NCBI GenBank assembly: GCA_964016885.1
Contig: OZ024740.1
Location: 51,708,001 to 51,772,000 of the forward strand
Source: Eledone cirrhosa
Lineage: Eukaryota
Length of the DNA: 64,000 nucleotides
Direction of reading: 5' to 3'
Part shown: piece by piece, positions 13,387 through 25,957 of the stretch
Position numbering within the stretch: the stretch's first letter is position 1
How the letters are laid out: each line of letters begins with the position of its first letter
The notes under the pieces: model-generated
The model's input: only the letters and a program-made list of their open reading frames with translations
The model's database searches: none
Told to the model about the DNA's origin: nothing
Made by a program: the position numbers and the translations under genes

Positions 13387-13823
13387 CACTATATTAATAA
13401 ATGGAAACTATTTTATTATATATATTTCAAGGGCGACCAAGGTAAATTATGGTGCGCTTTCATCAGATAAAATACAGATTTGTTTTATAAATAAATATTG
13501 ACATACCCGGAAAAAGACAACCTCAACGGTTGAAATTTGCTGGAGAGACTCTCCAGTGAATTTCAACCGTCAAGGTTGTCTTTTTTCCGGGTATGTCAAT
13601 ATTTATTTATAAAACAAATCTGTATTTTATCTGATGAAAGCGCACCATAATTTACCTTGGTCGGCCTTGAAATATATATAATAAAATAAATATGGTTTTA
13701 TAAATATAGTTCCCATTTATTAATATATTGTGTATTTACTCCACTATTTTGTTGAGTGCTTTATATCAGTTATAAAAATTTTAAAGCTTGTTGAATCCCA
13801 ACAAATTTAATATAACCTCTGCA
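13387..13823. mobile_element. Palindromic Penelope-like pLTR derivative with a one-sided tail, inserted in (TA)n
   Basis: Near-perfect palindrome centred at about 13548; arm and about 90-bp tail are homologous to 25690-25957 of the GIY-YIG element. Confidence 0.85.
13623..13688 (+). ncRNA. Minimal type I hammerhead-ribozyme motif
   Basis: tattttat-CTGATGA-aag..ctt-GAAA-T-ATAT-A-TA^-ataaaata (8-bp stem I, palindromic loop 3). Confidence 0.75.
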
Positions 13824-14187
13824 TATATATATATATATATATATATATATATATATATATATATATATATATATATATATATATATATATATAGTGAAAA
13901 CTGGAACGGGAACAAAAACAGAGAGACAGTACAAACAAAGGTTTATTAGTTTCACGCTCTTGAGAGTGGGGGGTGCTTCAATCACCCTCTCACTTGGAAT
14001 TGACCAACTATGGAGGAGGGTGGTTTTGGTGTGCCATGTAGGTATACTTCAATGGTTCTAACTGCTTACTAGGAGTGGTAGATTGACAATCTCTCTCTCT
14101 CTCTCTCTCTCTCTATCTATATATATATATATATATATATATATATGTACATTAAAAAAATATTTTTCGCTCTACATGGCTGAATAC

Positions 14188-14823
14188 AATAAATGTAATC
14201 TTAGTTTTTCGAATATTAATAATTGTTTCTACTTTTGGCACAAGGCCAGCAATTACACAGTGAATTACTGGTACTTTATTTTATCGACCCCGTAAGGATG
14301 AAAGGCTAAGTTAACCTCCACGGGATTTGAACTCAGAATGACAAGGGCCGTAACTCTATGCGTCAAAGCATGGGGTCCGACCCTCTACCGATACTGCAAA
14401 ATTCACCGCTCTATATATTATTAATAATAATTGTTTCTACGTTAGGCACAAGGCCAGCAATTACCAAGTGTATTACTGGTACTTTATTTTATCGACCCCG
14501 TAAGGATGAAAGGCAAAGTTAACCTCGGCGGGATTTGAACTCAGAATGGCAAGGGCTGTAACTCTATGCGTCAAAGCATGGCGTCCGACCCTCTACCAAT
14601 ACTGCCAAGAGGAGCTCATTCTGCTGATATGGCTTTAAAAATGAGGATGTTTGCATAATTGCAAACGAATCGAATGTTATTATTAATATTCGAAAGGTTA
14701 ACTTTGCCTTTCATCCTTACGGGGTCGATAAAATAAAGTACCAGTAATACACTGGGTAATTGCTGGCCTTGTGCCTAATGTAGAAATAATTATTAATATT
14801 CGAAAAACTCAGATTACATTTAT
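14188..14823. mobile_element. Cluster of SINE family 1 copies: two tandem on the minus strand and one inverted partial copy
   Basis: ggtactttattttatcgaccccgtaaggatgaaagg..gggatttgaactcag occurs twice, with its reverse complement at 14696-14790. Confidence 0.8.
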
Positions 14824-14826
14824 ATA

Positions 14827-15341
14827 TACATGGCATACGTCAAAACGGCCGGTCTCAAAAGTGAAACTAATTTTTGACAGTTACGTACACGTTATAAGAG
14901 TTATTTAAATTTATATATATAAAATAAAGGAGCAAATAAGAGCATGATATAAAGTCAGTCATGTGTGTGTGTGTATATGTGTGTGTGTGTGTAAACGAAT
15001 GTAAAAGTACACACACATATACACTTATATATGCACACATACACACTATAATATATACACGTGTGTGTGTATATATGTGTGTGTGTGTAAAATTCTAAGA
15101 AACCTTATCTATGCCCTACATATATTCTTTTACATTCGTTTACACACACACACACATACACACACACACACACATACACACACACACACATACACACACA
15201 CACACATGACTGACTTTATATCATGCTCTTATTTGCTCCTTTATTTTATATATATAAATTTAAATAACTCTTATAACGTGTACGTAACTGTCAAAAATTA
15301 GTTTCACTTTTGAGACCGGCCGTTTTGACGTATGCCATGTA
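14827..15341. mobile_element. Fold-back/MITE-like element with terminus GGCATACGTCAAAACGGCCGGTC
   Basis: About 190-bp inverted arms with TA flanks. Confidence 0.75.
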
Positions 15342-15453
15342 TATATATCTATGTATATATGTACATATATATATATATATATATATATATATATATATAT
15401 ATATATATATATATATATATATATATATATATATATATATATATATATATATA

Positions 15454-22461: not shown

Positions 22462-22826
22462 TATATTAATAACAGGAATTCCAACTTTGTCTGATTTACT
22501 CGTTTTATTTACAATCCTTTAAAATATATAATGGTATTATAATGAAATAGTATGATAGAATATTAAATTCTAAGTGTTAATTGAACAAGGACTTTCATGC
22601 TTTCGCAATCTTCAGGTTCATAATATGTGGTGACAGTCAATTGCAAACTTGACTGTCACTACATATTATGAACCTGAAGATTGCGAAAGCATGAAAGTAC
22701 TTGTTCAATTAACACTTAGAATTTAATATTCTATCATACTATTTCATTATAATACCATTATATATTTTAAAGGATTGTAAATAAAACGAGTAAATCAGAC
22801 AAAGTTGGAATTCCTCTTATTAATAT
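22462..22826. mobile_element. Near-perfect 365-bp palindrome with a hammerhead core
   Basis: Centre about 22644; tgaac-CTGAAGA-t-tgc-gaaa-gca-t-GAAA-GTAC-TT^-gttca at 22669-22707. Confidence 0.8.
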
Positions 22827-22930
22827 ATATATATATATATATACACACACACATATATATATATATATATATATATATATATATATATATATATATATAT
22901 ATATATATATATATATATATATATATATAT

Positions 22931-23170
22931 ATTGTTATACTTTGGGAGGGTCATGCTGCCAATAAGAAACACACGCACCAGTTGCTTTCACTCCAATTTA
23001 TTATAAATTAAATTTATAAATTTCCGGTTGGTTGGTTGGTTCCACAACCGGACGGTTGTTCATATATTGTCTAAGTTCTTTCGTCACACATTCTGTGACC
23101 TTTTCAAAGTATAACAATATCGGTTTCAACACACGTTTTCAGATAAAGAATCTTGCTAAACAAATTCAGA
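22931..23170 (-). mobile_element. Diverged Penelope-like terminus related to the 62306-63603 family
   Basis: Shares ttgttatactt(t/g)gggagggtcat; minus strand has a decayed core ttgaaaa-ggtcaca-gaat-gtgtgac-GAAAGAACTT. Confidence 0.5.
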
Positions 23171-23205
23171 ATATATATATATATATATATATATATATAT
23201 ATATA

Positions 23206-25957
23206 TATACGATATTAATAAATGGAAACTATATTTATAAAACCATATTTATTTCATTATACATATTTCAGGGATACCAAATTAAATCATGGTATGCCTT
23301 CATCAGACAAAATACAATATATAACAGTTTTACAAATAAGCTTTGACGTACCCTTTTAAAATGCAACCATTATTTTTGGAAGCCATCTGGATAGTGAATT
23401 GTTTATATTATTTTAATAAGTCTTAGTGTTAAGGACAATTAAAAAAAGACGGAGAGAAAGAAAAAAGACGGAGAGAGAGAAAAAAGAAAAAGAAAAAAAC
23501 GTGGAGAAATATCGGAGAGAGAGAAATGCATGGAGAAAAAAGAGAGAGATAAATAAAGACAGGAGGAAAGAAAGAAAAAAGAAAAAAGAAAAAAGAAAAA
23601 AGAAAAAAGAAAAAGAAAAAAGAAAAAAGGAAGAAATAAGAAAAACAGAGGAAAGCAACAGAGAGATATCAAGTCATCAGACAGATAGAAAAACTCAAGA
23701 GAGAGAAATAATATATAGAGAGAGGGGGAGATAATGAAAACTTTACGTCATGTCATATTAAGTTGAGTTAACAATTTATATGAAATGAATAATAAAAATA
23801 TAAATATTAATATTCATGAATGGGACATAAATATATAATATGAGAAATTAAACAGTGTTTAATAATGATTATATGTTTAGTTTAAAACTTGAGATCAATA
23901 TACTAAAATTTGAGAAACCACTATCTTACGGCAAAGATAGACAAATATATATATATATATATATATATATATATATATATATATATATATATATATACAC
24001 ACACGTCCTGAGAATAGAAATTATGTCTACTCAGGTCTACAATATAGACATACAAAACGCAAATGATTTCTCTTAATCACTGCTATACATTCCTTGTGAT
24101 ATAAAAAGTTCACAGTATATATACATAAATATATACGATTAACATTCATGCCTTCATATATACGATTACCATTCATGCATTTAACATTTTGTTAAAATTA
24201 TGCATATCTGCAATCAAAACTGCGTGGGTAGACATGCACACACATAACTCTCACCCACACACATGCATATACATATATATATATACACATACATATGTAT
24301 AAATAAATATTTGCGTGCGTCTTCACCAATTGTTAGACCCGCATCACTCATGTACACATACAGACAGATATACAATCATAAAAAAACCTATAACACTTTT
24401 ATATGCATGTTAATACACACATACACATCTGTATAGAGATAATCAAATGTCAATATATTACTAAAGGATTATACTTTGGAAATATAACTATAACAATATA
24501 AATTTAAAATACCAAAGGATTATATTTTGGAAATACAATTATATCAGTATAGTCTAAAGGACAAACGAATTCTAGAGATATCAAAACATTAAATATCTTC
24601 AAAAACACTATAGAGTATCTTAAGTTAAAATAATATGTTTCATATATTTAGTATAGAAATTTATCCTACGTATATTTTAATCAAGATATTGAAAGGGTAG
24701 ACTTATGAAAATTATGAGAAGCTATCAGAATCAAAATAAACCTAATAAAAATAAATAAAAAAATAAATAAAAAAAAATAATAAAAAAAATAAAAAAAAAA
24801 AATAAATAAATAAAATAAAAAAAAAAAAAATAAAAAAAAAATAAAAAAAAAATAAAAATAAAAATAAAAATAAAAGTTAAATAAATATTATATCAATATA
24901 ATTTAAAAATTTAAAAATTTTTAAAAGTTTTAAAAAAGTTTAAAAAATTTAAAAATTTAAAAATTTTTAAATTTTTAAATTTAAAAAAGCCAAGGATTCT
25001 ACAGATATCCTTATATTTAGTATAGAAATTTATCTTACGTATATTTTATTTAAGACATTGGAAGTATAAACATTTTAGAGTAGTTTATTATATCTATGTT
25101 TATATTTAGGAAGAAAATTTTAAAAGAAAAAGGTGAAGGAATGATTTATCAACAGGTTTCTAATGATTTATCAACAGGTTTCATATATTAACTAAATTAC
25201 TTAATTACTTATACTACATTTTAAATTTATATTTATATTTAAACGTTGAGTTCAATCTGTGTCTGCAGCAACTGAATAAATTATTCCTTAAATTAAGGGA
25301 ATTTTTGGACTTTAATATAAAGAATATTTCTTCAATACAAAGATCACAATTTTCTGAAGAGGAATTAAAAGGAGTAGCTTTTTTAAATAATATTCCAAGT
25401 CATCGAATATTTAACATTATCTCGTTTAAGGTCCCATAGTAGGCTAGATAGCGAAGTTGAAGATTTTTTGTTTGGATCTGTGAAAGAATTTTTATGATTA
25501 TTGAAGCGAAATTTAAATTCTGTAGAGGTAGAACCGACATAGTTAAATGAATTTAAATTAGTTTTAACATTACAATTGTACACTACATTTTTAGCTAAGC
25601 AGTTGTTATTTAACGGACAGTTAGATTTATTTCTACAGTTACAGTTATTCAATTGAATATTGCTTGGGTTATTATTGGTATTTTGGTTAGGCTTCCAAAA
25701 ATAATGGTTGCATTTTAAAAGGGTACGTCAAAGCTTATTTGTAAAACTGTTATATATTGTATTTTGTCTGATGAAGGCATACCATGATTTAATTTGGTAT
25801 CCCTGAAATATGTATAATGAAATAAATATGGTTTTATAAATATAGTTTCCATTTATTAATATCGTATATCTACTCCAAATACTTGTCGAGTGCTTTATAT
25901 CAGTTATAAAAATATTTACTTGTTGTATCCCAACAATTTTAAATAGAACTTTTGCAT
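23206..25957 (-). mobile_element. 5'-truncated Penelope-like element: inverted pLTR, GIY-YIG C-terminus, about 2-kb low-complexity 3' UTR, pLTR
   Basis: ORF 25383-25652 CNCRNKSNCPLNNNCLAKNVVYNC..YVGSTSTEFKFRFNNH; inverted arms 23206-23384 and 25690-25869; (TA)n on both sides. Confidence 0.88.
25760..25824 (+). ncRNA. Minimal type I hammerhead motif in the pLTR (mirror copy on the minus strand at about 23250-23315)
   Basis: tattttgt-CTGATGA-agg-c-atacca..tggtat-c-cct-GAAA-T-ATGT-A-TA^-atgaaata; stem I held by two G-U pairs. Confidence 0.72.

Follow-up and report, generated by a model that had tools for sequence, protein, structure and literature searches.

The DNA analysed here, called the window, is a stretch of 64,000 nucleotides from Eledone cirrhosa (GenBank assembly GCA_964016885.1, contig OZ024740.1, positions 51,708,001 to 51,772,000 of the forward strand); it lies on contig C1 of the 3.0 Gb genome that was searched. 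It contains insertions of Penelope-like elements (PLEs) flanked by (TA)n, and two of these are the main subject: a coding-less palindrome at 13387-13823 and a longer element at 23202-25957 that carries a GIY-YIG endonuclease end. Both are made of two head-to-head arms, one ending in a tail and the other lacking it, and a bulged hairpin is predicted where the tail begins.

The long element, a member of family A, has arms of approximately 2,490 and 268 nt that share a 5-nt overlap at 25690-25694, and it does not form a perfect fold-back. Its minus-strand arm (23202-25694) is 5'-truncated and has no tail; it comprises a GIY-YIG endonuclease remnant with a CxCx5C linker and CxxC/CxH (25214-25694), a low-complexity 3' untranslated region (UTR) of about 1.8 kb (23397-25213), and a pseudo-long terminal repeat (pLTR; 23202-23396) with a hammerhead motif at 23250-23314 and an initiator-like CACTATCC at 23389-23396. 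The plus-strand arm (25690-25957) contains a hammerhead motif at 25760-25824 and ends in an 85-nt tail (25873-25957), which is opened by a predicted bulged hairpin (ACTC...UC...GAGT-GCT) at 25872-25896 on the same strand. The first-pass annotation had described 23206-25957 as a Penelope master element. The reverse transcriptase (RT) is missing and just the GIY-YIG end is present, with a 1-nt frameshift near 25376-25397 that occurs in no other locus among 58 rows; without RT, this copy cannot be the master. A common in-frame TAA was seen in the endonuclease end of approximately 17 of 58 family A rows (some loci were fetched twice), which points to a broken sub-lineage seemingly copied in trans.

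Several full-length family A copies were found among 20 loci picked for long frames. They are arranged as a 3' UTR fragment, pLTR, tail, about 45 nt, ATG, an open reading frame (ORF) of 742-746 amino acids, 3' UTR and pLTR. The tail is thus 5' UTR sequence, and it is followed by a second hairpin before the ATG. The 742-746 amino-acid frame is uninterrupted in loci L124 and L126, and family A measures 4,217 nt from 5' pLTR to tail in L124. Exact genome matches numbered 1,567 for the tail end, 2,317 for the tail-less end and 1,767 for read-through into the tail; the family is young and large. At L133:6889-7011 the ORF and the beginning of the tail, in like orientation, are directly joined, as though the copying process had jumped at the first hairpin. 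Families A, B and C keep a donor-like GG/GTAYGT site 5' of their hammerheads (25723, 13591 and 26184, all on the plus strand); no genomic copies spliced at this possible donor were found in 156 family A occurrences.

The palindrome at 13387-13823 had been proposed to be homologous to the terminus of the long element, and this was confirmed: 13589-13830 matches 25721-25963 with 81.0% identity over 248 nt (E 2e-59). The similarity is not one of low complexity, since the match takes in the hammerhead and the tail. The idea that both share a single pLTR did not survive, and we assign the palindrome by its sequence to a sister family, B, with its own 3' UTR and ORF. The family B ORF, which occurs at loci L249 and L251, shows 69-76% amino-acid identity to family A in three main blocks (L249). 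In the window copy, the tail-less arm (13387-13547, minus strand) has a pLTR with a private 20-nt deletion and a hammerhead motif at 13409-13474. The tailed arm (13549-13823, plus strand) contains a predicted type I minimal hammerhead motif (13623-13688), the tail (13739-13823) and a predicted hairpin (ACTC...UU...GAGT-GCT; 13738-13762). The palindrome centre at 13548 adjoins the CACTAT-type 5' stop of the family. As first described, the right arm reaches farther than the left arm at its outer end in both copies and ends in TGCA before (TA)n; the extension is 85 nt each time and not about 90 bp.

Thirty family B loci chosen for tailed arms were read by hand. The inverted arm ended at 85 nt in 15 of them and at 88-95 nt in 4; it was tailed in 1, interrupted in 1, and not seen within 1.5 kb in 9, two of which had a tail-less arm in longer stretches. 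Junctions differed from copy to copy. An automated pairing (29 mixed, 1 tail with tail, 70 unclear) was left unused, as its query probably matched family A too.

By their protein motifs these families fit the Hydra clade of PLEs, and the insertions are almost certainly pairs of Hydra-type ends. Statements on papers cited here by PMC or preprint number refer to the available parts of those papers. The marks of the clade are set out in PMC8557442, where a usual length below 3 kb is given as a tendency only and where the supplement includes an octopus Hydra family and one family with an inverted truncated copy. As in members such as Hydra-1_Obim and Penelope-13_HM (PMC8557442), the full-length copies have a single ORF encoding RT and then a C-terminal GIY-YIG domain. 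The family A protein has RWR, DKT, CxCx5C and CxxC/E/N/CxH and no CCHH, and a pLTR hammerhead motif and (TA)n insertion, features of the clade, are likewise present. A partial tandem forming the pLTRs, an inverted 5'-truncated copy, also known in the clade, and a tail at one end were seen in L124, L125, L126, L128 and L249. DKT was found in families A, B, D, E and F, RWR in A, D, E and F, and CxCx5C in the window remnant and family D; in the translations CCHH was absent, and CxxC and CxH stood around a conserved E and N. Related proteins numbered 235 at E<=1e-20. Motif counts in relatives, taken over 120 sequences, gave DK[TS] in 98 and DKG in 4, RWK in 65 and RW[KR] in 80, CxCx5-6C in 102, and the pattern of CxxC and CxH without CCHH in 103. 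Pfam GIY-YIG matched the window remnant weakly (E 0.018, below the cut-off) and left the full ORF unmatched. A homodimer prediction for residues 1-495, run without an alignment, gave no verdict (score 0.00), and a metagenome scan gave 579 pattern matches with zero relatives among them. Compared with the clade as described in the available part of PMC8557442, RWR stands here in place of RWK, family A reaches about 4 kb with a long 3' UTR, and tails of about 65-99 nt, strict pairing of tailed with tail-less arms and a duplicated hairpin are not mentioned there.

The geometry of the paired arms was determined for family A from the first 100 tail-end matches on C1; after removal of one double count (L176) and one duplicate (L186), 98 insertions remained, with four junctions placed by hand. 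Seventy-seven had one tailed and one tail-less arm, 1 had two tails, 6 had an interrupted inverted arm and 14 were single-armed, so that 77 of the 78 resolved two-armed copies were mixed. Tail lengths were not random across copies: the distance from the end of the tail-less arm to the tail end was 84-90 nt in every one of the 77 and exactly 85 nt in 69. When head-to-head ends were paired by exact pattern over the first 181.6 Mb of C1, 46 of 46 pairs were mixed against 49% expected under independent choice (p 6e-15), and 92 of 184 ends were left without a partner. Anchoring on 30 tail-less ends gave a partner within 1.5 kb at 18 loci, all 18 tailed; 8 of the other 12 had a tailed partner farther away. 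Mixed pairs also made up 13 of 13 in family C, 7 of 7 in H, 3 of 3 in J, 22 of 27 in D (5 unclear) and 18 of 22 in F (1 tail with tail, 1 tail-less pair, 2 unclear). The tail is 85 nt long in A, B and D, 96 in C, about 80 in F, 65 in H and 99 in J, and does not match the 30-40 bp expected for the endonuclease-positive (EN+) PLE architecture. Both insertion flanks are (TA)n, which hides any target-site duplication, and (TA)n directly follows the tail at all but one of the tail-anchored sites listed.

Arm lengths ranged from 53 to 4,217 nt; in the 77 mixed insertions the tail-less arm was longer in 40, the tailed arm in 21, and the two were within 20 nt of each other in 16. The first-pass interpretation holds in part: the palindromes are Penelope-like pLTR ends, and the one-sided tail recurs in thousands of copies, but fold-back of a single cDNA is excluded for most copies because in 61 of 77 one arm, be it the tailed or the tail-less one, exceeds the other by more than 20 nt. 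Allele comparison between arms was possible in 63 of the 77 insertions with sufficient overlap. At 18 polymorphic sites a minor allele was found in both arms 129 times and in one arm 11 times, compared with about 36 shared cases expected by chance. An A-to-G editing mark common to both arms was not seen (1 of 8 shared private changes).

The 5' ends of the arms were also non-uniform. Tailed arms stopped 79-83 nt from the tail end, inside the first hairpin, in 6 of 98 insertions versus 1.05 expected (p 0.0008). In family A, 34 of 114 arms at risk stopped just below CACTATCC; the bins on either side held 7 of 121 and 8 of 80. Arms of families B and C had 5' stops at YCACTA. An initiator-like TCACT has been reported in rotifer pLTRs (PMC3846280); together with the accumulation of arm 5' ends, this makes YCACTA the likely RNA start. 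Run-off of both cDNAs there would probably account for the short palindromes that lack coding sequence.

In eight families the ends overlap the target at a TAT-like sequence that lies 2-5 nt ahead of a predicted hairpin of the form RCTC...GAGY-RCT. In this hairpin RCTC is followed by an upper stem with its loop, then by a bulge of 2 nt led by U, and finally by GAGY and RCT. The first copy stands at the opening of the tail (site 1), and the second comes after the tail end and ahead of the ATG (site 2). The two 3' ends of a family are fixed. Both copies were seen in seven families (A-F and J), whose proteins diverge down to approximately 40-50% identity; family H has site 1 only, no read-through copy having been found, and family E has ends at site 2 only. 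When the site-1 sequence was compared with the element, its best match was site 2 (score 37, next 29; 1/5000 shuffles). In family F, mostly represented by chance finds in flanks, 63 of 66 (TA)n-flanked ends lay at the two motif sites. Families H and J, which were not used to define the motif, also end just before the hairpin, with 9 ends of H at TAT before the motif and 8 and 4 ends of J at sites 1 and 2, respectively.

A genome pattern search for the hairpin gave 5,612 matches versus 2 for the reversed control. Among 29 distinct hairpin loci, 12 lay before a family ORF, 12 belonged to family H or probably H, and 5 were other element ends or tandem units. In 26 frequent variants the outer R-Y pair was Watson-Crick (A-U or G-C) in all 26 although this was not required, and upper pairs 1-3 were paired in 25, 24 and 17 variants, compared with shuffled means of 20.7, 19.2 and 10.2. 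When the whole tail region was folded by free energy, the two hairpins were not both recovered. The stem-bulge-stem can be made out by eye in published consensus sequences from coral, sea cucumber and sea louse (PMC8557442): twice at the 5' end of Hydra-1_Ajap, at the 3' ends of Hydra-2_Ajap and Hydra-2_Amil too, and with alterations in Hydra-1_Crog.

Our preferred reading is that these are 5'-truncated head-to-head insertions of sister PLE families into (TA)n, with a tail that arises because the two strands of the cut target prime on the same RNA, each at its own hairpin. Judged from sequence, this whole is probably right. Among its parts, dual priming is very likely, and a single RNA with hairpin-set starts is somewhat favoured. 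We put forward more tentatively, at slightly less than even chances, that a clade-wide hairpin pair docks two reverse transcriptases on one RNA, with the spacing setting the tail and the second strand made without copying the first cDNA.

In detail, the element protein would bind both hairpins and cut both (TA)n strands. Each target 3' end would anneal at UAU beside one hairpin and prime there, so that tail length would equal hairpin spacing. The downstream enzyme would copy the tail, usually displacing the upstream cDNA, and both enzymes would either halt prematurely or reach the RNA 5' end at YCACTA and run off it, which would yield the short palindromes without coding sequence. The two cDNA ends would then be united by end joining, often via short overlaps. 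With dual priming on one RNA, mixed pairs become obligatory, alleles are shared between arms, arm lengths are free to vary and stops inside the first hairpin are in excess. There is a precedent in Poseidon of Anolis carolinensis (PMC11167929), whose protein cuts and extends both strands of an AT-rich target in vitro and whose tail is the stretch between two internal start sites. Poseidon differs in belonging to another clade, in its 30-40 nt tail inside the ORF and in starting in an AC-rich stem loop, and the two starts are not tied, in the available part of that paper, to two target strands or inverted arms.

Several observations weigh against this reading. Single-armed insertions make up 14 of the 98, and in 39 of 98 the tailed arm reaches the 3' UTR, beyond the point where the RNA putatively starts; should the site-2 hairpin be necessary, these long arms need tandem read-through or a circular template, and circular RNA has been proposed in PMC4209133. 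Junctions in the 77 insertions overlapped by at least 2 nt in 33, abutted in 17 and contained inserts in 27, figures that are BLAST match ends with no control set. Arms symmetric within 10 nt were found in 15 of 77 insertions versus 4.2 expected, and arm lengths correlate (Spearman 0.43); fold-back may account for this symmetric minority. The shared alleles are also explicable by two RNAs of one source locus or by arm-to-arm conversion. As to the hairpin, the descriptor was built from these same sequences, the 26 variants are related, so that the pairing counts exaggerate their independence, and in family J the first upper pair is incompatible with the 2-nt bulge.

Dual priming with a separate RNA molecule for each strand, the pair being held in fixed unequal roles, is unlikely but is the strongest competitor. 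Most tailed arms cross site 1, which on one RNA requires strand displacement, and approximately 8% of informative allele comparisons (11 of 140) differ between arms. However, such one-arm differences are expected from post-insertion mutation (99 one-arm private changes), an extra rule would be needed for the almost invariable mixed pairing, and the six tailed arms that stop inside the site-1 hairpin fit a collision on one RNA.

We regard as rather improbable that the hairpin is a DNA-level or RNA-DNA endonuclease signal at which a longer intermediate is trimmed at two sites, along the lines of the endonuclease-mediated resolution suggested in PMC8557442. GAGYRCTY is close to self-complementary, and the Drosophila virilis endonuclease needed the tail for cleavage, as cited in PMC11167929. 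In contrast, a spacer of 6 to 36 nt, internal pairing and a 3' bulge suit a folded RNA, the site-2 copy lies outside the inserted DNA, and in Poseidon the tail is bounded by two start sites of RT (PMC11167929).

Fold-back, in which a single cDNA primes its own copying at a palindrome and the tail is left without a partner strand, follows the self-priming proposed in PMC3846280. Besides the excess of symmetric copies, it draws on four copies centred on one 8-nt palindrome and on the 13387 copy, which has a 1-nt loop and a variant in both arms. Nevertheless, the unequal arms described above exclude it as a general mechanism, and overall we give it slightly poorer prospects still; shared private changes did not occur at a higher rate in symmetric copies, at 2 per 2,332 sites, than in asymmetric ones, at 6 per 7,458, a comparison of low power. 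It is very improbable that the short palindromes form a non-autonomous fixed-length family, like miniature inverted-repeat transposable elements or retrozymes, moved as a unit by one master: four family A copies do share a junction and many are near 460 bp, but junctions vary between copies in A, B, C and D, an ORF of its own is present in each family, and the clustering in size matches the position of the 5' stop at YCACTA.

Differences between the hammerhead stems of the 13387 and 23202 copies had been taken as covariation. In helix I they proved to be two separate one-sided wobble changes, A-U to G·U and U-A to U·G. Across eight aligned variants 98% of cells pair, the C·C mismatch and the palindromic loop 3 are retained, and two-sided changes affect 0 of 8 pairs in helix I and 4 of 5 counted pairs in helix II. 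The hammerhead structure is thus supported by compensatory pairs in helix II, and cleavage is predicted; the calls come from our own descriptor plus pair counts, and the covariation counts span related families. All four copies with a one-sided tail have hammerhead-like motifs, and family D has a core variant, CAGAAGA replacing CUGANGA in the copies examined (window, approximately 19490-19520; L290). An Rfam scan of the window gave no hammerhead among the 150 of 154 matches listed, nearly all of which were microRNA models on repeats or palindromes. Hammerhead cleavage as the source of one or the other end was rejected, since the cut is predicted to fall 55 nt short of the tail-less end and just 1 of 181 family A arm 5' ends came within 5 nt of it. 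Further hammerhead-core matches were seen at 22601-22688, 12632-12656, 20063-20086, 27006-27033 and 63326-63353, several of them inside inverted repeats.

One-sided tails were also confirmed elsewhere in the window, at 19584-19668 in family D and at 26327-26422 in family C, each of which has its own ORF. The family D insertion is two-armed (19250-19668), with a site-1 hairpin at 19586-19636 on the plus strand. The family C palindrome (25974-26422) has a plus-strand hammerhead at 26212-26279, a tail of 96 nt and a site-1 hairpin starting at 26332, with one base change in this copy. A tailed end of family F lies at 26476-26610 on the plus strand, with a site-1 hairpin at 26543-26571. Families A, C and F adjoin at 23202-26610 with only (TA)n between them, and this end-to-end arrangement points to (TA)n repeats as insertion hot spots. 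A hammerhead palindrome of family J was seen at 61823-62054, and a J copy with an ORF (L364) has both hairpins. At 60008-60223 a site-2 hairpin precedes the decayed ORF start of a further family that is 40% identical to A. Outside the window, L369/L370 (G000:C1:27009654-27009942) consists of retrozyme-like head-to-tail units of approximately 257 bp with the family F pLTR, tail, hairpins and first codons. Two near-identical intronless ORFs with KKDD ends, on the minus strand at 35409-36314 and 42125-42910, have the appearance of a local duplication and presumably resemble BAP31/BCAP31.

Twin priming of L1, as reportedly described by Ostertag and Kazazian in 2001, has both target strands priming one RNA and the cDNAs joining head-to-head, as proposed here. 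In L1 the second primer is said to act at variable internal sites and the arms not to overlap, whereas the present families have two fixed starts and arms that overlap in most cases. Pen2a of Adineta vaga and its kin (PMC3846280) resemble the present families in the head-to-head inverted pLTRs, one of them tailed, in TCACT within the pLTR and in junction palindromes; they differ in that self-priming on an antisense template is invoked, the tail is 31 nt and target-site duplications are visible, which (TA)n hides here. The minimal core, long helix II, palindromic loop 3 and opposite-strand pairs 100-700 bp apart are shared with PLE pLTR hammerheads and non-LTR retrozymes (PMC4209133; bioRxiv 10.64898/2026.07.22.740005). 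Unlike retrozymes as described there, the 13387 palindrome is a single head-to-head pair and not an array of head-to-tail non-coding hammerhead units, and family A arm ends do not cluster where cleavage is predicted.

The architecture, clade, hammerhead and (TA)n preference are already published, and the elements are ordinary new families of that clade and architecture. In the literature searched, which took in papers outside subscription, we found no description of a duplicated hairpin, twin priming in PLEs, strict pairing or tails of 65-99 nt. How the tail and the inverted repeats of PLEs form is termed open in PMC8557442, PMC3846280 and PMC11167929. The copies analysed here place two hard constraints on any answer, namely one tailed plus one tail-less arm and unequal arm lengths. 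Since a short, mutable RNA signal lies at both start sites, the question becomes testable with a few RNA mutants. The hairpin also provides a specific means of locating the boundaries of Hydra elements. If true, a programmed, double-primed route would explain the tail, the inverted arms and the short palindromes together.

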